A DNA stretch of 50,805 nt from a virus (Duplodnaviria > Caudoviricetes), in the IMG/VR virus record IMGVR_UViG_3300007775_000003, positions 1 through 50,805 of that record; one strand, 5' to 3'. A program made the position numbers and the translations under genes. Below, one piece after another: positions 4,233 through 27,247 of this stretch; positions within the stretch are counted from its first letter, which is position 1, and each line of letters opens with the position of its first letter. Under the pieces are notes generated by a model. It made no database searches. It saw nothing but the letters and a program-made list of their open reading frames with translations, and was not told the origin of the DNA.

Positions 4233-4802
4233 ATGACCCAACGTATACCCGCCGACGCCCGGCTCGGCCGCAGCAACGCCGGCAAGAAGATCGGCTATCG
4301 CATCCTGAATCTTGACCGCTCCTTGTTCGCAGGTTGGGCGGCGGCGCAAGAGACGACCATCCCCGGCCACTACATGGCCGTGGGCGGGGTGGCGGCGCGG
4401 GATGCCGGCGGGTACATCGTTTGGGGCACCGAGAACGAGGATTTTGCGCAAGCGAGTATCGAGCCGGCGCAGCCCGACCTGACGCCGGCCATGTTGGCGA
4501 GGATAGCGGCCTTACTGGATGGTCTCAGCGAACGCATCCTACACGCCGTTTCACTCATCCCCGGCAGTGTGATTGTTGAGACGGACACCGCGCAACTGGA
4601 CGCCGCGATTATGCGCCTAACCGAGATGGCCGAAGCCGCCACGGCCATGCGCCAGGCCGTGGTGATTGCCGAACACATGAGCGGCAACCTGAACCAGTAC
4701 GCGGACACAATGGCGCGAGTCCAGGAGATGGACGCAGCGCAGCGCCGGCGGCTGGTGGTGATTGACGATTTTTTAGAGCAGGTCAAGGAGATAGTGCGCT
4801 GA
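4233..4802 (+). CDS. Hypothetical protein (beta domain plus helical C-terminus)
   Basis: Paralogous to 3228-3503; coupled to the next gene (TGATG). Confidence 0.7.
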   Translation: MTQRIPADARLGRSNAGKKIGYRILNLDRSLFAGWAAAQETTIPGHYMAVGGVAARDAGGYIVWGTENEDFAQASIEPAQPDLTPAMLARIAALLDGLSERILHAVSLIPGSVIVETDTAQLDAAIMRLTEMAEAATAMRQAVVIAEHMSGNLNQYADTMARVQEMDAAQRRRLVVIDDFLEQVKEIVR

Positions 4803-5077
4803 TGGCAAAGTTCAAAAAAAAGCCGGTTGTGATTGAGGCGTTTTTGTGGACGGGTGGGCCAGACCAGACCGAAGACCCCGAATGGATTGTTGATGCCATT
4901 AAAAACGGCGTTGTTTATTTTCAGGATGGCGAAAATCCGTACCTAACCATTGAAACGCTTGAGGGCAAAATGCGTGCGAATTCCGGGGAGTGGATCATTA
5001 GAGGGGTGAAGGGTGAAATTTATCCTTGCAAGTCAGACATTTTCGCGGCTACCTACGAGCAGGTAGAGGATAATTGA
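4802..5077 (+). CDS. Conserved small phage protein (KKPVVIEA / TLEG / YPCKxDIF family)
   Basis: Motifs KFKKKPVVIEA, IETLEGKM, WIIRGVKGEIYPCK; AT-richer than neighbours. Confidence 0.75.
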   Translation: MAKFKKKPVVIEAFLWTGGPDQTEDPEWIVDAIKNGVVYFQDGENPYLTIETLEGKMRANSGEWIIRGVKGEIYPCKSDIFAATYEQVEDN

Positions 5078-5361
5078 TGCCAACTGAACGCTACCAACAT
5101 CAGGCATGGGTTGAATCCCAACTGCGCACGCTCGTGGACATCGGGCTTGATTTGGCCGAAGCGGAACGCTCTGTACGCTGGGTGCTGGATCACCTGCCCG
5201 CCGGCGCTGACCCGGCTACGTGGATACCGTCGCCCGGCGAACTGTGGACTGCGCCGGATAGTGACGAGGCGATAGCGGATGCGCGGCAGGCATGGATAGC
5301 CAGCCCGGCGGTGCAGGCGAGATTCAAGCGGCTTTTGGACGCAAGGGCGGAAAATGCCTGA
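5077..5361 (+). CDS. Hypothetical protein
   Basis: GAGGA RBS; overlaps both neighbours. Confidence 0.6.
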   Translation: MPTERYQHQAWVESQLRTLVDIGLDLAEAERSVRWVLDHLPAGADPATWIPSPGELWTAPDSDEAIADARQAWIASPAVQARFKRLLDARAENA

Positions 5362-6016
5362 CCTGTTACCCGGCTACACATTCTCGCCAAACGTCGCTCG
5401 CTACCGCAGCGCCGCTTCTGGCCGCTTCGTTGCCAGGCGCGACATCGTCAGCCAACTGGATGCGCAAGTGCGGCACGGCGAGCAGAGTCTGGCGAATCTG
5501 ACCGAAGCGCTACACGAGGGCCGGATCAGCCCTAGCGTATGGACGGAGCAGATGCGCACCGAGTTGCGGCAATTGCATAGCCAAAACAGGGCGCTAGGTG
5601 CCGGCGGATGGGACAGGATGACGCAGCGGGACTGGGGCGCTGTAGGCGGCAAGTTGCAAAGTGACTACCGCTATTTGACACATTTCGCTTTAGAAATCCA
5701 AGAGGGCAAAGTCACGCTTCCGCAGGCGCTGAACCGGGCAAACCTGTACGCCGGCAATGCCCGCACACAATTTTGGGCCGCAGAGCGCGAGCGCCGGCCA
5801 CGGCAAGCCGGTATGGTGAGTATCGAACGGCGGGTGTTGGGGGCAGCGGAGCATTGTAACGATTGTGTGGGTTATTATGATCAGGGCTGGACGATGGCCG
5901 GTCAATTGCCGGTGCCTGGCGAAGCGTCCGTATGCCGGACAAACTGCAAATGTATTTTGGCGAATCGGGATGTGCCAGCCGAGGAACTCGGGGAATGGCT
6001 AGGAAGCAAGCGTTAG
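5354..6016 (+). CDS. Minor head/morphogenesis protein (MuF/gp7-like)
   Basis: Between portal and protease; C-terminal HCxxC...CRTNCKC motif. Confidence 0.7.
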   Translation: MPDLLPGYTFSPNVARYRSAASGRFVARRDIVSQLDAQVRHGEQSLANLTEALHEGRISPSVWTEQMRTELRQLHSQNRALGAGGWDRMTQRDWGAVGGKLQSDYRYLTHFALEIQEGKVTLPQALNRANLYAGNARTQFWAAERERRPRQAGMVSIERRVLGAAEHCNDCVGYYDQGWTMAGQLPVPGEASVCRTNCKCILANRDVPAEELGEWLGSKR

Positions 6017-19700: not shown

Positions 19701-19914
19701 GTGGCCGGCTGACGTGGCCAGCTGGTTTTTGGTGCGCGCCGTATCACCTGGTGGTTCTACGACTGGCGTCATCCAGTCCACCGTAGATAATTTCGCTACA
19801 TCAGTCGTGAGTCGAGTAGGCAATCTGGCGAGTATCCTGCCGGGCGGATCGTCGGGCTGGACAAATGGACCGGCGAATGGATTCGCCTTGCCGAGAGTTG
19901 GCGTAAACGCATGA
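16795..19914 (+). CDS. Tail tip/hub protein with PKD domain and C-terminal Asp-box beta-propeller
   Basis: PKD-like WAWNLGDG...VSLTVQDSNG; Asp-boxes TEDYGANW, SEDRGLTW, SYDQGATW. Confidence 0.75.
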   Translation: MRLFLLLPSIVFAARVNEPAGVLYPLNSVDFDGVTTGAYTDVLPGQTVIFGSAAGFDDLGRQRVRKAPTASELYIGRSSLGVRDGEVNIIDNAYITVLDDYRIWSKIPFFDTDGLQFKDSDLAYVDQTLEPPPVANCGPGTAGTIDPADDLLDVAFSAAASIAVADGATITGWAWNLGDGNVIAGDSDEEDVTAEFPAGFRWVSLTVQDSNGKTHTARCPVLAIDPDDDPTIRAFEIETHRITPQGQQLAVRVREDISLASYPDGTLVLLWDSEPADESDRSHMQFIGWIQQEPIDQQAQRTGFLQDVTLNCVDVAGRLATLPGFPQIIENEDAPENWSQMNAPNIDKYLHYLLHWHSTALELADWTWSGTGDDYEFQALASDGQNLFDQVEQRAGAIVPDHHLTCNRLGQLQTVVDPMLQDTADRTATEQATITLADWSAVRYERTRPPRVYWLRGSAIKAQSVPEIEVFFCESPGHTPGQGEQEMTHGEQLAISQADLNTVTGHRYARINAPQSKFTVSLATGDDLGIEPADLTWVRLVVGAAQRTPGQTFDRRGLVAELNIRYDHQRTGLVKTVEMVWERETSGTPAVTVIPSAAEPVPDGDWWVPPPVEEWIPPSFGDPTVYYGVPAGYVLWDGAHIMRTWDVLDSSPTWALIDSGISGNIEDLQYVHTGADTVGGWLKTSTAIFWCADLLATTPTWTNVLALSTVQATDATPASGVVTFQCMSHYPSQPGTLTVATGPNAAETFNTTYQHGYFWLTEDYGANWTQIDTDYLLETFTSSTRGYCHSALYAMDTFHSSPGTIYCVRATPVIGNRFVQVLVSEDRGLTWAKVQSLEPDGNNRRDFSLLHPFPDAASASYGMHGPISGDTRPLGYVSTDGWATKTQLTLPSGYGGFSSLWRFNKRTFDDDHVMAWMRNSTSTFYELMESYDQGATWASLFDSGLAGQSVSNTGNISLGNCAAYNTPNGWPADVASWFLVRAVSPGGSTTGVIQSTVDNFATSVVSRVGNLASILPGGSSGWTNGPANGFALPRVGVNA

Positions 19915-20732
19915 GTGCAACCAATGACGACATCCGCCGCCTGTTCGACAACGCTTGGCGCGGTAGCGAGCAGCGTTCGTGGATTGCCGGGATCTTAGGT
20001 CGCGTCAACGCGGACGCGACCATCACCGTGGACGTGCCCAACCGCTCCGCGTTTGTGTTCGTCCGCGTCGGCGCGACCGGCCAGCAGACGACCACCATCG
20101 CCCGCGACGCCTACCGAGTGCCACGCCGGGCCAATCTGCCGGTGCGGATGCGCCGCGAGGGCAACCAGTTGGTCGTCTACGATGTAGACACGGTACGGGC
20201 TGAAGCCGCGACCGCCGGCGAGACGGTGACGACCGTCGCCAAACACACACACCGCATCGGCACGGGGCTGGAATACGAAGTCGAAGCCTTGCGCCTGGAG
20301 CCAGGTCGCGTGAGTTGGTACGGCGGGCTGAGCGTGTATGTAGGCGCGTTGCGCTACTACTACAATGGCGCGTGGGATACCTGGCAAGGCGGCGACATCG
20401 ACCTGACCGCCTATGTGCCGGCGGCAAGCGGTGAATGGGCCTGGGTGCTTACGGGCGTCGATCCAACCACCAACACGGCGGTTGCCGCGGCCGGCGTGAG
20501 CCAGATATACGCCACACCGCTGACCATTGATCTGATTGACGCCATTGATTTTGGCGATGCCATCCCCTGCGCGGCGGTGCGCGTACGCAATGACGACACG
20601 GTGCTGAGTGACATCACGCGTTACGTTGATGCCCATGGCTGGTTCAATGGCGCGATTGAGACGGTAGATCGGTTATTGGTGTTTGAGGATGATTTCGTAT
20701 TTTTTGACGAGGAGCCAGTGCTATGGCCGTGA
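19911..20732 (+). CDS. Minor tail protein
   Basis: Position; coupled ORF. Confidence 0.6.
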   Translation: MSATNDDIRRLFDNAWRGSEQRSWIAGILGRVNADATITVDVPNRSAFVFVRVGATGQQTTTIARDAYRVPRRANLPVRMRREGNQLVVYDVDTVRAEAATAGETVTTVAKHTHRIGTGLEYEVEALRLEPGRVSWYGGLSVYVGALRYYYNGAWDTWQGGDIDLTAYVPAASGEWAWVLTGVDPTTNTAVAAAGVSQIYATPLTIDLIDAIDFGDAIPCAAVRVRNDDTVLSDITRYVDAHGWFNGAIETVDRLLVFEDDFVFFDEEPVLWP

Positions 20733-22472: not shown

Positions 22473-22501
22473 AGTATACACCCGTTTACGCCCAATGTCA
22501 A
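22473..22501 (-). promoter_or_regulatory. Sigma70-type promoter TTGACA-17-TATACT
   Basis: Near-consensus hexamers in intergenic DNA. Confidence 0.85.
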
Positions 22502-22514
22502 GCCTTTTTGGTGT

Positions 22515-22565
22515 GAGTTTTGAAAACTCGTGAAACCCTTAACATTGTGTTCTATTCGTAGAACA
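22515..22565. promoter_or_regulatory. Operator-like palindromes GAGTTTT-G-AAAACTC and TGTTCT-N6-AGAACA
   Basis: Repeated with nearly identical spacing at 28408-28456. Confidence 0.7.
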
Positions 22566-22598
22566 AAAAAGCCCCGGCCAGCGCAAGCCAGCCGGGGC
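22565..22598 (-). terminator. Intrinsic terminator of the FtsK operon
   Basis: GCCCCGGC stem followed by T6 on the minus strand. Confidence 0.85.
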
Positions 22599-22644
22599 AG
22601 TCAACGTCGTCTGCGTCGCTGTTGGCGGCGTCGGGTGCGCTGTG

Positions 22645-23085
22645 TTATTTGCCTCTCTTTTTTGCCCAAGCCGCGTGACCCTCTTTGCATGTCGGTTCGA
22701 TCCACGGTGTGGGCAGCTTGCCGCCGTACTTTGCCGCCCATGCTTGGTTGCGCGGGTCAATCACGCCGCCCACGATTGCAAGTTTCTGCGTCCGCTCCAT
22801 TAAGTACTCCGCCCAATTCGCTTGAGACGTGCGCACCGCCACCCGCGCCTCTTGCGCCGCCGGTTGGGGCGGTGATCCAACCGTGTGGACGCCCTCGCTG
22901 TAACGTAGAATTTCAACGCCGCGTGGTTCCAGCGCCGTGTAAATGGTGTCACGCGCCGGGGTGCAGTACGCTTTTTGCACTACGAACGTATGCATGCCTG
23001 CCGGTTTTGCCTTCGCTTTGGCGGGACTGCGTCTTGCACCTTGCCGCGCTTTGCTTCTCCACTCTGTACGCCAGTTGCTTGCCAT
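22645..23085 (-). CDS. Basic hypothetical protein, last gene of the FtsK operon
   Basis: Start MASNW coupled to the upstream stop (TAATG); AAGGTGAG RBS. Confidence 0.7.
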   Translation of the reverse strand: MASNWRTEWRSKARQGARRSPAKAKAKPAGMHTFVVQKAYCTPARDTIYTALEPRGVEILRYSEGVHTVGSPPQPAAQEARVAVRTSQANWAEYLMERTQKLAIVGGVIDPRNQAWAAKYGGKLPTPWIEPTCKEGHAAWAKKRGK

Positions 23086-23645
23086 TAGCTCACCTTTGGT
23101 AGTCTGTACATGGTTGCCTGTTCGCCTTCCAGGGGTAGCGCATATTGCGGCGTATCGTCCGGCTCCACTTCGGCCAGCCGGTTGCGCTGCTCGGCGTCGT
23201 TGGCACGGTAAGCCAGTTCCGCCAGGCGCTTTTCGTACATGGCCCCGATTTTGCCGTAGCTGCTCAAAATGTCCTGCTGCGTCTTGGCGTCGGCGGCGTT
23301 CATTTGGTTGACGCCGCGCACAACCTCCGTCACCGCTCGCGCCTGCTGTGCCCCGCTCATGGCGTGGGCGTGGAGCAGATCCGCGTTGCTCTGGGCGATG
23401 CCGTGGCCGAACCGTACCAACAGCGCCATCGTTGCATGAATGCCGCCGTACAGCACGGCCAGCACAACCAGCACGCCGACGGCCACACCATACCAGCGCG
23501 CCCACTCCTTGCCACCTAGCCAGACGGAAACACCAAAGCCGCCGAAGATGAACACGACGGCCAGAATCGAGAACGCGACAAACGCCCACAGGCGGGCGCT
23601 CTGGTCGGTCGTGCCACTGCGGGTATAGGTTGGTTCGTTGTACAT
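23085..23645 (-). CDS. Two-TM membrane protein with helical C-terminus
   Basis: Hydrophobic LWAFVAFSILAVVFIFGGFGVSVWL and WYGVAVGVLVVLAVLYGG; AAGGAG RBS. Confidence 0.75.
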   Translation of the reverse strand: MYNEPTYTRSGTTDQSARLWAFVAFSILAVVFIFGGFGVSVWLGGKEWARWYGVAVGVLVVLAVLYGGIHATMALLVRFGHGIAQSNADLLHAHAMSGAQQARAVTEVVRGVNQMNAADAKTQQDILSSYGKIGAMYEKRLAELAYRANDAEQRNRLAEVEPDDTPQYALPLEGEQATMYRLPKVS

Positions 23646-23656
23646 GGCATGGCTCC

Positions 23657-25105
23657 TTATTGCGGCTTCAATGCGCTACTACTACTGTACATAAACGGCG
23701 CTACACGGGCCACAGAAGGGCGCTGAGGCGCTTTGTCGCTAGAAGTAGTAGCGGTAGTAGCGGTTGGCGCTTTCTCTTTATCTAGCACCGCTAACGCCGC
23801 CAACAAGCGCCGCCGGTTAGCGCCGCCGGTGTAAGCGTTGTCGTCACCAGTGAGAAGTCGAATCATATCCGCCTGCGTAGCGTCCGCGGCGTAAGCCTCA
23901 CGGATGGCGGCGGCGTCGATTTCGTCTTGTGTTACCGCTACCGGCGCTACCGGCGCAGTAGCGGCTGGTAGCGGCTTGGTAGTAGCGATGGTAGCGACCT
24001 CTGAACGGTGGCCGTAGTTGCGCCAGATGGCCCGACACAAGCCCATCGGCGTATCAATTAGCGGCGTTTGGTAACGAAACATGGTGCGGTTCAGTCGGTA
24101 AATAAATGAACCATACCCCGGCAACATTTCGGCCCCGCTCGCCTTGACCTGCACCGCCGTGTTGGCGTCGTCCTTGCTGGTCACGCTGCCCACTAGGCGC
24201 ATGAGTAGGTTCGACTTGAGTTGGTCGCCTAGCACATCGGCGGTCGGCTTCTGTGTGCAGATTATCAAATTCATGTTGTTCTCACGACACCGGCGGGCGA
24301 TGTCGGCCAAAAAGAATAGAATCTTGTTTCGTGTGTTCTTGTCTGGATGCTCGGTCAAGCTGGCGGCTTCCTCAATTGCCAGGATGTGCCGTGTGTCCCG
24401 CGAGACAATGCCCCGCTCGCGTTGCTCCATTTCGGCGTAAAATGTCGTGATGGCGTGTACAGCGTCTTCCAGGTCACGCGCCACGGTGCGGACGTGGGGC
24501 AAATTGTCTAGGAACTGTACGCCGTCGCTGTGTTTTGGGTCAACGACCGTGATCGCCAAGTCCGACGGCGAGTTGTGTAGCATAAGCGAAAACAACACCG
24601 ACAGTAGTTGGTTGGTCTTGCCGCTGCCGGTGGAGCCTGCAATCAACCCATGCGGCTGGTCGGGCTTCGCCATATTCCACAAGACCGGCGCGGTGCCATC
24701 GCCGGTGTAGCGCAGGCCACAAAATGCCGTCATCGGTGTACCAGGCCATTGCACCGACGACCAGGACAGCACGTCGCGCTGTGGCCGGCTGATCTCCATC
24801 GTGTGTTCGTAGCGGTCAATGCGCACGGTGGGCATGATCTCCATGCCGCTTTCGTCGGTGCTGGTTATGCCATTCATGCGCCGAAACTGGCGCACATAGG
24901 ACAACGTGTCATCCTGTTGCGCCAACAGCTTGCCGCCGTCAATACCCATCGGCACGCTCAGGTCATAGACGACCGTGGTGGGCGTCAGGTAGTGCGACGG
25001 CAGGCGGCGCGAGGTGCAAGGCACGGACACAGACAGGCCACGCGCCTTGAATAGTTGATTGATGATTGTCGCTTCGCTAACGATTCGTGCCAGGTCGTCT
25101 TGCAT
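23657..25105 (-). CDS. FtsK/SpoIIIE-family DNA translocase (TraB-like)
   Basis: HGLIAGSTGSGKT Walker A, VVDPK, LAIEEA Walker B, IICTQKP; small helical C-terminal domain; GAGGAGG RBS before MQDDL. Confidence 0.9.
   Translation of the reverse strand: MQDDLARIVSEATIINQLFKARGLSVSVPCTSRRLPSHYLTPTTVVYDLSVPMGIDGGKLLAQQDDTLSYVRQFRRMNGITSTDESGMEIMPTVRIDRYEHTMEISRPQRDVLSWSSVQWPGTPMTAFCGLRYTGDGTAPVLWNMAKPDQPHGLIAGSTGSGKTNQLLSVLFSLMLHNSPSDLAITVVDPKHSDGVQFLDNLPHVRTVARDLEDAVHAITTFYAEMEQRERGIVSRDTRHILAIEEAASLTEHPDKNTRNKILFFLADIARRCRENNMNLIICTQKPTADVLGDQLKSNLLMRLVGSVTSKDDANTAVQVKASGAEMLPGYGSFIYRLNRTMFRYQTPLIDTPMGLCRAIWRNYGHRSEVATIATTKPLPAATAPVAPVAVTQDEIDAAAIREAYAADATQADMIRLLTGDDNAYTGGANRRRLLAALAVLDKEKAPTATTATTSSDKAPQRPSVARVAPFMYSSSSALKPQ
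23674..23996. repeat. Cluster of 11 GTAGCG/CGCTAC hexamers
   Basis: CGCTAC at 23674, 23699, 23936, 23945; GTAGCG at 23748, 23757, 23877, 23958, 23968, 23982, 23991. Confidence 0.85.
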
Positions 25106-25107
25106 TG

Positions 25108-25194
25108 TCACCTCCTCATCACATACCACGCCAACAACGGGACGGTCAGCCATGCCAGCGCCACCAGGATTGTGCCGAACGTGTGGTCGGTCAT
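25108..25194 (-). CDS. 28-aa single-TM peptide
   Basis: MTDHTFGTILVALAWLTVPLLAWYVMRR; coupled to the HNH stop. Confidence 0.55.
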   Translation of the reverse strand: MTDHTFGTILVALAWLTVPLLAWYVMRR

Positions 25195-25451
25195 AGCGTC
25201 AATCCACCGTGCGCTTTGCCGTGGCACGCTGCGCACACGGTCGTCAGGTCGAACAGTTCGCGCAACCACGAGCCGCCCCGGTGTGTGTACGAATGGTGGT
25301 GGACTTCTAACCGCTGGGACGTTCCGCACATCCGGCAACGGTTGCCGTCGATGTGGCGGCGCACCCAGCGCAGGATGCGCCAACGCGGTGTGCGGAGATA
25401 CGCACGGTAGGCGATCTGTTCGGGTGAGAGCGGCGAGACGAAGTTGGTCAT
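25191..25451 (-). CDS. Small HNH-fold Zn-finger protein
   Basis: YLRTPRW, CRMC, LEVHH, LTTVCAACH. Confidence 0.8.
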   Translation of the reverse strand: MTNFVSPLSPEQIAYRAYLRTPRWRILRWVRRHIDGNRCRMCGTSQRLEVHHHSYTHRGGSWLRELFDLTTVCAACHGKAHGGLTL

Positions 25452-26200
25452 GTGTTCGCCTCTGCTTTGCCGTGTCCGTTTAATTGCGCCCGCGCTTCTT
25501 TCAGTCGATTGTTGACGGTACGCTCCGATTTGCCGATTTGACCGGAGATTTGCGAAATCGTGTAGCCGTTTTGCTTCATATTCCACACCTGCAAAACCTC
25601 AGACGGCAGCGCAATCACGGGCGTGTCGTCGGCAACTTCTTGCACTACTGGTTGCGTGATTTTTGCGCTTTTGCGCCCTGTTACGCCATTGCGTTTTTGC
25701 GTGATTTTTGCGTCCTCATTGCGTTCGTGCCACCGTTTCAAGCCAAGCGCCACGAATGCAAACATACTGATTAGTGGCAATCCGGCAAGTACCCAGTGCC
25801 CGCCGGTCTTGATTTCTAGCTGGTAAACGACGGTCATCACAATCGCCAACATGCCTACACTAGCAACCACGGCCACCCCCAGCGGCCACGCATAGCGTTT
25901 GCGGTTACCTAGCAAGCCGTCCCACATATGCAGCGCAACTTCGATGATTGCAAACAGCGCAAGTTCCACCGCCATTGCGAACGCAAATGCTTGCAATTGC
26001 GTGTAACCGAGGCTGTGCTGGCTAATGTTGTAGACGCTCACAGCGTTGGGCAATGGCGCAAGCAACGCCAAAGCACGGGCGGCAATGTCTGCGCCCTTGT
26101 CGCTGGTTTCGGTAGCGATGTACCACAGCATGTGGATCAGCGCGCCGTAGTGACGCTTTAGAAATTTGACGTAAGAAGGATATTCGTTGTTGTCAATCAT
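25448..26200 (-). CDS. Multi-TM membrane protein with C-terminal HTH (SpdB2-like architecture)
   Basis: About 4 hydrophobic segments, a linker, then GYTISQISGQIGKSERTVNNRL. Confidence 0.75.
   Translation of the reverse strand: MIDNNEYPSYVKFLKRHYGALIHMLWYIATETSDKGADIAARALALLAPLPNAVSVYNISQHSLGYTQLQAFAFAMAVELALFAIIEVALHMWDGLLGNRKRYAWPLGVAVVASVGMLAIVMTVVYQLEIKTGGHWVLAGLPLISMFAFVALGLKRWHERNEDAKITQKRNGVTGRKSAKITQPVVQEVADDTPVIALPSEVLQVWNMKQNGYTISQISGQIGKSERTVNNRLKEARAQLNGHGKAEANT
25652..25723. repeat. 16-bp direct repeat TTGCGTGATTTTTGCG (x2) within a TTGCG cluster
   Basis: Copies at 25652-25667 and 25697-25712; 7 TTGCG in about 72 bp. Confidence 0.8.
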
Positions 26201-26315
26201 GGCCTCACCTTGTCAGTTTGGCCGGAGGTGCTGCATAATGTTCGCAGCCGCCAGCCGGTCATGTCGGTTGTTGGTCAGCGCGTCGTTGGTGGTTTCGTCA
26301 CTGGCGACGCGCGCG

Positions 26316-26564
26316 CTACTCTACTACTTCCACATTCTCGGCGCGCCAAGCGCACCATTCCGCATGGATGGCAGGCGGCACGCTATAGCGCACCACACGA
26401 AGAACTCCCCAGCCATCACCGGGCCATTCTTCGCCGGTTTCCTCAATCAACCCAGCGGCCACCAATGTCGCCAGTGTCGCCGGGCGGTGGCCCTTGTCCT
26501 GGTTGACGGCCACCTGCTCAAACACTCGCAGTTGCGCCGGGGTCAGGTTGCAGAATCGTTTCAT
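26316..26564 (-). CDS. Small winged-helix-like hypothetical protein
   Basis: LTPAQLRVFEQV...TLATLVAAGLIEE; GGAGG RBS. Confidence 0.6.
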   Translation of the reverse strand: MKRFCNLTPAQLRVFEQVAVNQDKGHRPATLATLVAAGLIEETGEEWPGDGWGVLRVVRYSVPPAIHAEWCAWRAENVEVVE

Positions 26565-26779
26565 CCCTCCACCTCCTCATCCGCTGCGTCTTCCAGCGCT
26601 ATGCTATCAAAACCAACCGGCGCATAGCCTTCTGTATTCAACACTTTTTGCGCTTGGTCGCGCGCCGCCTCGGCAACTGCTCGCCTTACTAATTGCTTTA
26701 CTCCAAGCCGCTTGCCGTAGCGGCGTTTAAGTAGCCAAATGGTTCTCCGATCCAATAGGATTGTTGCGGCTTCGTTCAC
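26561..26779 (-). CDS. Hypothetical (possibly RHH-like) protein
   Basis: GTG start with AGGAGG RBS; coupled ORFs. Confidence 0.55.
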   Translation of the reverse strand: MNEAATILLDRRTIWLLKRRYGKRLGVKQLVRRAVAEAARDQAQKVLNTEGYAPVGFDSIALEDAADEEVEG

Positions 26780-27018
26780 CCGTCTACCTCCTGCGCTGCG
26801 TGCGCCAACAGGCACTCAAGCTCACTGGCCGTCATGCCACCACGTAGCAGCGCCACGAGCGCACCGTACACAATCGAGCGGCGTTCGTCGGGGTGTAGTT
26901 TGAGTAGCAAATCGGTCAGCGAATTTGCTTGCATGGCCGCTCGTACCCACATGGCACTACGTCCGATGGTCGGCACATCAATCGGGGCCGCTGGGCGGTC
27001 AAGCGTGATCGTAGTCAT
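26776..27018 (-). CDS. Hypothetical protein
   Basis: Coupled ORF in operon. Confidence 0.6.
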   Translation of the reverse strand: MTTITLDRPAAPIDVPTIGRSAMWVRAAMQANSLTDLLLKLHPDERRSIVYGALVALLRGGMTASELECLLAHAAQEVDG

Positions 27019-27247
27019 TTGTCATCATCTCCATTAGGATGCCTAGCATTTCCTCGATCCGTTCCAGGCGTTCGGCTGTCTGCGCACGGGAGCCGGTACG
27101 CTCGTCGTCTCGTAGCCGGTTCCAGTCAGCCAAAATTTGCCGGATCAGCTCGGACTGATTCCATGCGTGCTCACCCCAAATGCAGGCCGCTCGCTCGATA
27201 ACCTGCAAAGCGTGGGCGTCCAGTCGAATTGTTGTGCGCTTTTCCAT
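26999..27247 (-). CDS. Ribbon-helix-helix (CopG-like) regulator
   Basis: KRTTIRLD...NQSELIRQIL; first gene after the promoter. Confidence 0.7.
   Translation of the reverse strand: MEKRTTIRLDAHALQVIERAACIWGEHAWNQSELIRQILADWNRLRDDERTGSRAQTAERLERIEEMLGILMEMMTNDYDHA

Follow-up and report, generated by a model that had tools for sequence, protein, structure and literature searches.

GTAG-core repeats over the 3′ end of an FtsK/SpoIIIE-like ATPase gene in a soil tailed phage: a candidate clt-like site

What is written over the end of a phage motor gene when its last codons repeat one six-letter word, in both orientations, more often than codon usage predicts? The question is raised by P0001, an FtsK/SpoIIIE-like ATPase gene of a tailed phage (Duplodnaviria; Caudoviricetes; IMG/VR record IMGVR_UViG_3300007775_000003), a complete virus record of 50,805 base pairs (bp) with direct terminal repeats, the whole of which was analyzed and is termed the window. 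Over its last ∼340 nucleotides (nt) this gene carries a dense array of the hexamer GTAGCG and its complement, CGCTAC. An earlier reading, made from the letters of the DNA and here called the sequence-only reading, had proposed that the array is a site like the cis-acting transfer locus (clt) bound by the plasmid translocase TraB, placed inside the gene of its own reader. The gene and the parts of the array are as follows (window positions):

23657..25153, minus strand: FtsK/SpoIIIE-like ATPase gene P0001, an open reading frame (ORF) of 498 amino acids (aa)
23936..23996, unstranded: upstream cluster of six GTAGCG-type copies; in the coding direction, CGCTAC four times and then GTAGCG twice
23877..23882, unstranded: lone GTAGCG within the segment coding for the helix-turn-helix (HTH)-like domain, read as GAC GCT ACG (Asp-Ala-Thr)
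23771..23929, minus strand: predicted three-helix, HTH-like tail domain, residues ∼409–461 (AlphaFold2 on the tail alignment)
23674..23765, unstranded: downstream cluster, an inverted repeat; in the coding direction, ACCGCTACTACCGCTACTACT, ∼54–58 nt, AGTAGTAGTAGCG

The repeat array and its codons

The hexamer occurs 39 times in the window (shuffle mean 25.3, standard deviation 4.5), and 11 of these copies lie within 23674–23996 on mixed strands, as the sequence-only reading had counted them (starts at 23674−, 23699−, 23748+, 23757+, 23877+, 23936−, 23945−, 23958+, 23968+, 23982+, and 23991+). From the density in the rest of the genome, 0.19 copies would be expected in 23660–24000, and the stretch is the genome's top 350-nt window for both GTAG (16; median 2) and GTAGC (11; median 0). 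A tandem pair of GTAGTAGCG is present at 23745–23762, and local tandem pairs number four, with periods of 9, 9, 9–10, and 10 nt. The repeats flank the small helical domain in the manner described before, with six copies upstream of it (23936–23996), four downstream (23674–23762), and one within (23877). The upstream cluster codes for the linker VATIATTKPLPAATAPVAPVAV in the frames xxC GCT ACx, xCG CTA Cxx, and GTA GCG, and the downstream cluster codes for TATTATT ... SSSSA and is the counterpart of an inverted repeat in six homologue loci; in the window its arms (23674–23686 and 23741–23753) are 13 nt long, 92% complementary, and 54 nt apart. As in TraB/clt systems, the 3′ end of this FtsK-like gene carries a cluster of short direct and inverted repeats.

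A repetitive linker of Ala, Thr, and Val might by itself bring such words with it, an explanation that the sequence-only reading had named as fatal to its own proposal. Three codon nulls were run on the last 115 codons with 20,000 draws each: resampling by genome codon usage gave a mean of 0.68 copies (maximum 5), synonymous permutation within the region 2.46 (maximum 8), and shuffling of codon order 0.83 (maximum 6), against 11 observed. The linker explanation therefore fails under genome or local codon usage, and the chance expectation is under one copy by genome density and by genome-codon resampling alike. The protein sequence has room for 13 copies at most, of which 11 are realized. In the coding direction the copies fall into four readings, xxC GCT ACx (six copies), xCG CTA Cxx (one), GTA GCG (three), and xGT AGC Gxx (one), and the codons involved are as atypical as had been claimed: GCT accounts for 9 of 27 Ala codons in the region (11% genome-wide), ACT for 6 of 13 Thr codons (10%), and GTA for 4 of 7 Val codons (13%).

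Outside the array there are 28 copies, compared with 25.3 expected for the whole window, and the genome-wide over-representation with strand polarity that characterizes FtsK-orienting polar sequences (KOPS) and SpoIIIE recognition sequences (SRS) was not found in the window. The coding strands of the 41 curated genes outside the array have fewer GTAGCG than expected (2 vs. 8.2, standard deviation 2.5), and CGCTAC is at 16 vs. 13.1 expected; this mild 16:2 skew follows the direction of transcription. The genome's sole other exact GTAGTAGTAG lies at 20352–20363 (minus strand) within CGCTACTACTAC, the array's own 12-mer, which is read there as CGC TAC TAC TAC (Arg-Tyr-Tyr-Tyr) in a plus-strand gene (19911–20732); this copy could be a remote extra site or chance. 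A near-copy of an array word, CGCTACTCTACTACT, is located at 26314–26328, at the stop-codon end of a small minus-strand ORF (26316–26564), and the genome's second-densest GTAG region (8 per 350 nt) is 26600–27050.

Near-identical copies of the stretch occur in soil metagenome runs from three studies, some of which are possibly the record's own source. In contigs of four soil runs the array is without differences where covered and offers no informative variation, the gaps in two of the runs being no evidence either way.

The element in homologues and its change with the tail

Six homologues from a viral collection have tails that align with the domain in the window (L005, L007, L008, L010, L018, and L019); with the window they make up the seven loci, here called type i, for which DNA is available. 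In all seven, a CTAC-array, 43–58 nt, and a GTAG-array follow one another in that order in the coding direction, and the position and orientation of the element are conserved in these distant homologues. What varies is where the stop codon falls:

Window: arm 1 coding (TATTATT); arm 2 coding (SSSSA)
L005: arm 1 coding, T run from (ACT)n; arm 2 coding, S run from (AGT)n
L019: arm 1 coding; arm 2 overlapping the stop codon
L010: arm 1 coding, CTA CTA CTA CCA read as LLLP; arm 2 intergenic
L007: arm 1 coding, (GCT ACC)x3 read as ATATAT; arm 2 intergenic
L018: arm 1 intergenic; arm 2 intergenic
L008: arm 1 intergenic; arm 2 intergenic

Because the stop codon moves over one and the same DNA element, the T, S, L, AT, and VA runs are side effects of the frame that happens to be open, and because the element is partly or wholly intergenic in homologues, the reading frame slides over a DNA element that was already there. 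The repeats are a DNA-level element, selected as DNA rather than as a protein feature. The notion that the array is written inside its own gene accordingly holds for the window and for L005, and is not essential, as the array lies partly or wholly between genes in other homologues. Exact GTAGTAGTAG is confined to the element in four whole homologue records (4/4, 3/3, 3/3, and 2/2), while one of the two copies in the window is within it; in the homologue phage records the element is essentially unique.

A word-indexed search returned ∼23 relatives of P0001 of similar length, which share a common ATPase and fall into two tail types in the alignment. The type-i tail is found in P0003 (81% identity) and in P0014–P0020 and P0022–P0024 (36–44%), and consists of a linker with IATT/TTT runs, a small helical domain, and a further T run, ending like SSSDLKPM. 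The type-ii tail is found in P0004–P0011, which are 75–90% identical to the window over the aligned ATPase part, and in P0013 (58%); in these proteins the peptide PVRTG stands before a small domain of another kind. DNA of close homologues was sought in viral, genome, and metagenome contigs, and all that came up was either distant FtsK-like loci, with no more than 39% identity, or pattern hits due to chance; nine pattern-matched loci (7 + 2) gave no tblastn match, and a megablast of 22500–26500 against the phage collection gave no match.

Among the loci with DNA, the type-ii tail was recognized by a hidden Markov model (HMM) in five loci (L009, L011, L012, L015, and L017). There the peptide APVRTGA is coded by two tandem copies of the 10-bp palindrome GCACCGGTGC, present twice at ∼63 nt spacing, and the linker-coding DNA holds 20-bp palindromes, GCACCGGTGCGCACCGGTGC. 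Counted over the strands, CACCGGTG occurs 4–8 times in type-ii tails, is absent elsewhere in each of these loci and from the seven type-i tails, and averages 0.01 in 137 other FtsK-like loci; exact GCACCGGTGC is confined to the tail region in five whole type-ii records (3/3, 1/1, 2/2, 3/3, and 4/4). Words of the GTAG type number 4–20 in type-i tails and 0–2 in type-ii tails, and average 0.86 in the 137 other loci, 7 of which reach at least 4. Repeat type and tail type change together. This is the co-variation that had been suggested as a check on the sequence-only reading: homologues with a different C-terminal domain carry GCACCGGTGC in place of GTAG-type words. For P0004–P0013, we predict that PVRTG is encoded by CCGGTGCGCACCGG. 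Since the nearest ATPase relatives bear the other tail type, tail and repeats appear, from their peptide footprints only, to be exchanged as one cassette.

The type-ii arrays have a layout of their own. In L011 (3658–3900) and L012 (3661–3900), six GGTGC half-sites precede the central GCACCGGTGC palindrome; downstream of it GCACC half-sites predominate (three in L011, four in L012), with one GGTGC directly after, which makes a convergent array around the palindromes. An 89-aa fragment from a representative library, P0127, contains the end of a type-i tail followed directly by the type-ii tail domain, which suggests that tandem or chimeric tails may exist, and one BLAST chain from type-i to type-ii tails passes through it. 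In the last ∼15 residues of the family alignment, F.FRG...KPQ/M is common to type-i and some type-ii relatives; the SSS run in the C-terminal peptide is restricted to type i, at the overlap with the GTAG arm.

A generic repeat survey covered 161 sequences, of which 149 were evaluated; 12 were dropped on account of a match off the plus strand, a frame extending beyond the locus, a locus shorter than 4 kb, or a tail region shorter than 450 nt. In 20 of the 149 FtsK-like loci, no 525-nt window scored higher than the one over the tail. Unrelated FtsK-like loci also have words at or after the 3′ end, among them GAAGAA in L013 and L014 (9 in the tail vs. 1 elsewhere) and CACAGA in L036 and L055 (6 in the tail vs. 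1–2 elsewhere).

A docking site for the motor and the alternatives to it

Selection at the DNA level, conserved position and orientation, uniqueness, and co-variation with the tail favor a cis-acting site read by the ATPase tail. On balance, we consider it probable that the repeats are a site of the clt kind, at which the pump docks or is loaded through its own tail, located beside the gene of a partner with two transmembrane (TM) segments. In this proposed mechanism, the last ∼340 nt of the ATPase gene would overlie a cis-acting element whose units are GTAG-core repeats, (A/G)GTAGCG and GTAGTAG, and in which two units of "CTAC-array then GTAG-array" bracket the sequence coding for the small three-helix HTH. 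The ATPases would form a ring, presumably hexameric, whose HTH tails bind the repeats; the motor would thereby be docked or loaded, with a defined orientation, on DNA of the phage itself, like TraB on clt or FtsK gamma on KOPS. The motor might then move phage DNA, probably together with the co-transcribed two-TM membrane protein. Binding by the tail, loading of the ring, translocation, and the biological purpose are what we infer from the arrangement of the locus.

In the AlphaFold2 model of the window tail, helices span tail residues 45–58, 63–71, and 80–97 (predicted local distance difference test score, pLDDT, > 90); the type-ii tail is likewise modeled as a three-helix bundle, and the linkers are disordered in the tail models. 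The structural neighbors are mainly DNA-binding HTH domains (DeoR, small terminase, ParB/KorB/VirB, sigma region 4, and resolvase). A Pfam scan of the tails gave no family, and as a candidate FtsK gamma domain or TraB the tail was rejected, with a match to neither family. A profile search of the full library with the tail gave 52 cluster representatives of 1.84 billion at E ≤ 1e-3, and PF01580 is located upstream of the tail in 8 of the 10 representatives scanned; judged by these profiles, the tail domain is tied to FtsK-like ATPases. A TTT run occurs in the last 110 aa of 27 of the 52 representatives; none of 81 other FtsK-like proteins has one, and among 96 blocks taken upstream in the same proteins there is a single case. 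Such a run is the footprint expected of an ACT-frame arm that is read through.

Parallels with known systems can be drawn on several levels. In published accounts of the Streptomyces plasmids, clt sites, with their direct and inverted repeats, are found at the 3′ end of the tra gene or overlapping it, and the C-terminal HTH of the translocase binds them (PMC3583192, PMC4170104, PMC4447253); TraB of pSVH1 reads 8-bp repeats via helix alpha-3 of a C-terminal winged HTH (PMC3583192, PMC4170104, PMC4447253), and the clt of pWTY27, which is bound by the translocase, takes in 16 bp within traA together with 159 bp beside it and contains both direct and inverted repeats (PMC3583192). The position of the array in the window resembles that of the pWTY27 site, which supports the sequence-only reading. 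The TraB/clt systems (pSVH1, pJV1, pIJ101, and TraA of pWTY27) have further features in common with P0001: an FtsK-like ATPase, a C-terminal tail (HTH-type and DNA-binding in TraB, HTH-like by prediction in P0001), short direct or inverted repeats at the 3′ end of its own gene, and adjacent genes for small membrane proteins, with the two-TM gene of the window recalling the Spd membrane partners of TraB. Unlike these, the system in the window is on a tailed phage (with terminase and tail genes) rather than on a plasmid or an actinomycete integrative and conjugative element (AICE), its ATPase lacks a membrane segment, its three-helix tail has no predicted wing, and its repeats are GTAG-core units of 6–7 bp in paired arrays of opposite orientation, mostly within the reading frame; a function in transfer would be putative.

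A second parallel is with FtsK gamma/KOPS and SpoIIIE/SRS. The FtsK motor domain is the nearest solved relative (2iuu and 2ius), and the proposal for P0001 follows the same idea, in which a small domain at the C terminus reads a short, oriented motif in the DNA and on it orients a hexameric pump; unlike FtsK, P0001 is without gamma, alpha, and 4TM domains, and the motif of the window is gathered in one 340-nt site. By analogy, P0001 and its array would work like a TraB/clt or FtsK/KOPS pair while belonging to neither family. Cis sites within the gene of their reader are familiar from parS, which lies in or near parB, and the iterons of the lambda origin, within gene O, are cis sites in linker-coding DNA. 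The parallel is that repeats overlie DNA coding for a linker and that the site and its proposed reader are inherited together; unlike lambda O or parB, P0001 belongs to a different family and process, and the overlap with the frame is facultative (intergenic in L018 and L008). Literature searches, judged by titles, found no paper describing a phage FtsK/TraB-clt module.

Several results weigh against a docking site. The motif is not enriched outside the array (18 observed vs. 21.3 expected in 41 curated genes, P = 0.82), and P0001 is without a predicted N-terminal membrane domain of its own. No strand and no wing are predicted in the model of the window tail, which together with the absence of an FtsK gamma or TraB match lends no support to the winged-helix analogy of the sequence-only reading. 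Foldseek against the PDB with the tail gave no match at E ≤ 1e-3, and in a wide structural search the best neighbors reach only Z 3.5–4.6 (best VIA Z 4.6), such that the modeled "HTH" is a generic three-helix resemblance. The type-i tails are only 17–25% identical to the window tail; hhalign between their two subgroups (window-like and L005/L018-like) gave E 0.0045 at a probability of 7.7%, the subgroups are joined only transitively, by BLAST chains of 2–5 steps in a small database, and the type-i HMM matched only its own training loci among the 161 sequences. P0003–P0024 are known as protein, and their T and S runs are footprints at the protein level only. Finally, the inverted repeats form strong hairpins in five of the seven loci (z −4.8 to −5.6), and arm 2 lies 0–25 nt upstream of the ribosome-binding site of the next gene, which fits an RNA or regulatory role.

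Such a regulatory role could take the form of an operator or roadblock, in which the tail HTH, or another phage regulator, binds the repeats and controls the two-TM gene or the operon rather than loading a motor. Arm 2 is placed 0–25 nt before the next ribosome-binding site or start in the window, L007, L010, L018, and L019. Palindromes are typical operators of dimeric HTH proteins, and the type-ii palindromes such as GCACCGGTGCGCACCGGTGC resemble them; co-variation with the tail fits an operator equally well as docking. Promoter-like sites in 22900–25400 are nevertheless at the level of chance (one, at 24543–24514, vs. a shuffle mean of 0.7), and the type-ii palindromes and the upstream cluster of the window are ∼300 nt before the end of the gene, a long way from the next start. 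It would also be unusual for a regulator to be fused to a translocase ATPase, and multi-copy arrays in two orientations are more than one operator requires. We regard an operator as unlikely, although worth keeping in view.

It is somewhat less plausible that the element acts as RNA or as single-stranded structure, i.e., as an mRNA hairpin or cruciform serving as a terminator, an attenuator, a processing site, or a coupler of translation between the ATPase and membrane-protein genes. In L005, L010, L018, L007, and L008, the loci with the strong hairpins, 0 of 200 shuffles were as stable; in L018 the stem is followed by UAUUUU, and both arms differ in step from locus to locus, being (CTA)n/(TAG)n in some and (GCUACC)n/(GGUAGC)n in others. 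The hairpin is weak in the window itself (z −1.41, a stability that 17 of 200 shuffles attained, and z 0.03 for a wider piece) and in L019 (z −1.54), no terminator-like site was found on the minus (coding) strand in 22900–25400, and 23000–24500 has no Rfam match at E ≤ 1. A hairpin needs complementarity alone, yet the GTAG core is kept across ATPases that are ∼25–35% identical; it also leaves unaccounted for the upstream cluster of the window, the direct tandem copies, and the link between repeat and tail type.

That the repeats are the site of some other machine (replication-origin iterons, a partition centromere, or a recombination site) and merely happen to lie at the end of this gene is a long shot. 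In L019, the gene downstream of the FtsK-like gene (4579–5364) starts with a ParA-type Walker A, KGGVGKTT, as read from its translation, and the absence of an integrase among the window ORFs scanned makes a plasmid-like prophage possible. In the window no Rep, ParA, or ParB gene was found adjacent and the replication genes are 12–20 kb away, and the repeat type tracks the tail type of the ATPase. The remaining idea, of a protein-level or mutational by-product in which replication slippage produced a low-complexity Ala/Thr/Val/Ser linker with rare codons carried along, can point to the four local tandem pairs and the T-rich linkers of the family and is hardly credible, since protein-preserving nulls never reached 11 copies even with local codon usage (maximum 8 in 20,000 draws), the hexamer occurs in four frame/orientation contexts with one tandem pair at a 10-nt period and hence in two frames, and the arrays lie between genes in L018 and L008 and are translated as Leu in L010; the codon nulls and the intergenic arrays together exclude a slippage or linker artifact.

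Gene, neighborhood, and significance

The assignment of P0001 as an FtsK-type gene, made by the sequence-only reading, was borne out by profile comparison. The gene product belongs to the FtsK/SpoIIIE ATPase superfamily by its match to PF01580 (residues 165–301, 65.1 bits against a cut-off of 24). G173–T180, including the GSGKT Walker A, is invariant across the P0001 family alignment; the best PHROGs match is phrog_1358 (E 8.6e-43), and the closest solved relatives are FtsK motor domains (2iuu, E 3.8e-21; also 2ius). Narrower assignments were rejected. As FtsK proper it reaches 63 bits with PRK10263 against a cut-off of 1566, and PF13491 (4TM), PF17854 (alpha), and PF09397 (gamma) are not found in it at E ≤ 0.1; as TraB of Streptomyces plasmids (NF041214) it scores 25 bits where 800 are required (E 6.2e-6, over the ATPase core alone); and as a PADLOC defense protein it gives partial SspH matches only, in the ATPase core (residues 163–259).

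24251..24661, minus strand: FtsK_SpoIIIE model match, including the Walker A GSGKT (residues 165–301)
23085..23645, minus strand: downstream gene P0106, 186 aa, with two hydrophobic helices (from its translation and hydrophobic stretches)

P0106 starts 12 nt past the stop of the FtsK-like gene, and its ribosome-binding site, TAAGGAG, overlaps that stop. A two-TM gene lies 3′ of the element in L010, L018, and L008 as well; there is no detectable similarity between P0106 and its counterpart in L018, and P0106 has no Pfam or PHROG family. Upstream of the ATPase gene (25191–26200, minus strand), a 250-aa ORF has a terminal HTH like sigma-70 region 4 (23.4 bits, below the cut-off of 25.7) and overlaps by ∼139 nt an ORF that bears an HNH nuclease motif (21.2 bits, cut-off 21.4). 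Elsewhere, the window encodes tail fibers, a large terminase, a primase, a ribonucleotide reductase, and a methyltransferase, and, on its minus strand, an HTH gene product resembling CI; among the ORFs scanned, which were part of the total, neither an integrase nor a partition gene was found.

FtsK/SpoIIIE-like proteins encoded by phages are common, with 348 phage records matching P0001, and PHROGs classes such proteins as moron or host-takeover, without a mechanism. A cognate cis site that travels with a DNA-reading tail would give a concrete handle on the substrate of this motor, which would be the phage's own genome. It also places a binding-site array and a reading frame on the same bases: depending on the position of the stop codon, one set of DNA words yields Thr, Ser, Leu, Ala-Thr, or Val-Ala or stays untranslated, and this accounts for the odd T-run and S-run tails of the protein family.

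A further reading goes beyond docking and is, in our estimation, doubtful: soil tailed phages may share a widespread, unannotated, self-addressed pump, composed of an exchangeable HTH tail, an exchangeable repeat cassette, and a two-TM partner, which would move naked double-stranded DNA between cells or compartments without virions. This would be the TraB/clt/Spd route of the Streptomyces type outside plasmids, and perhaps outside Actinobacteria. If it is true that the motor moves phage DNA between cells, the line between phages and conjugative elements would be blurred.

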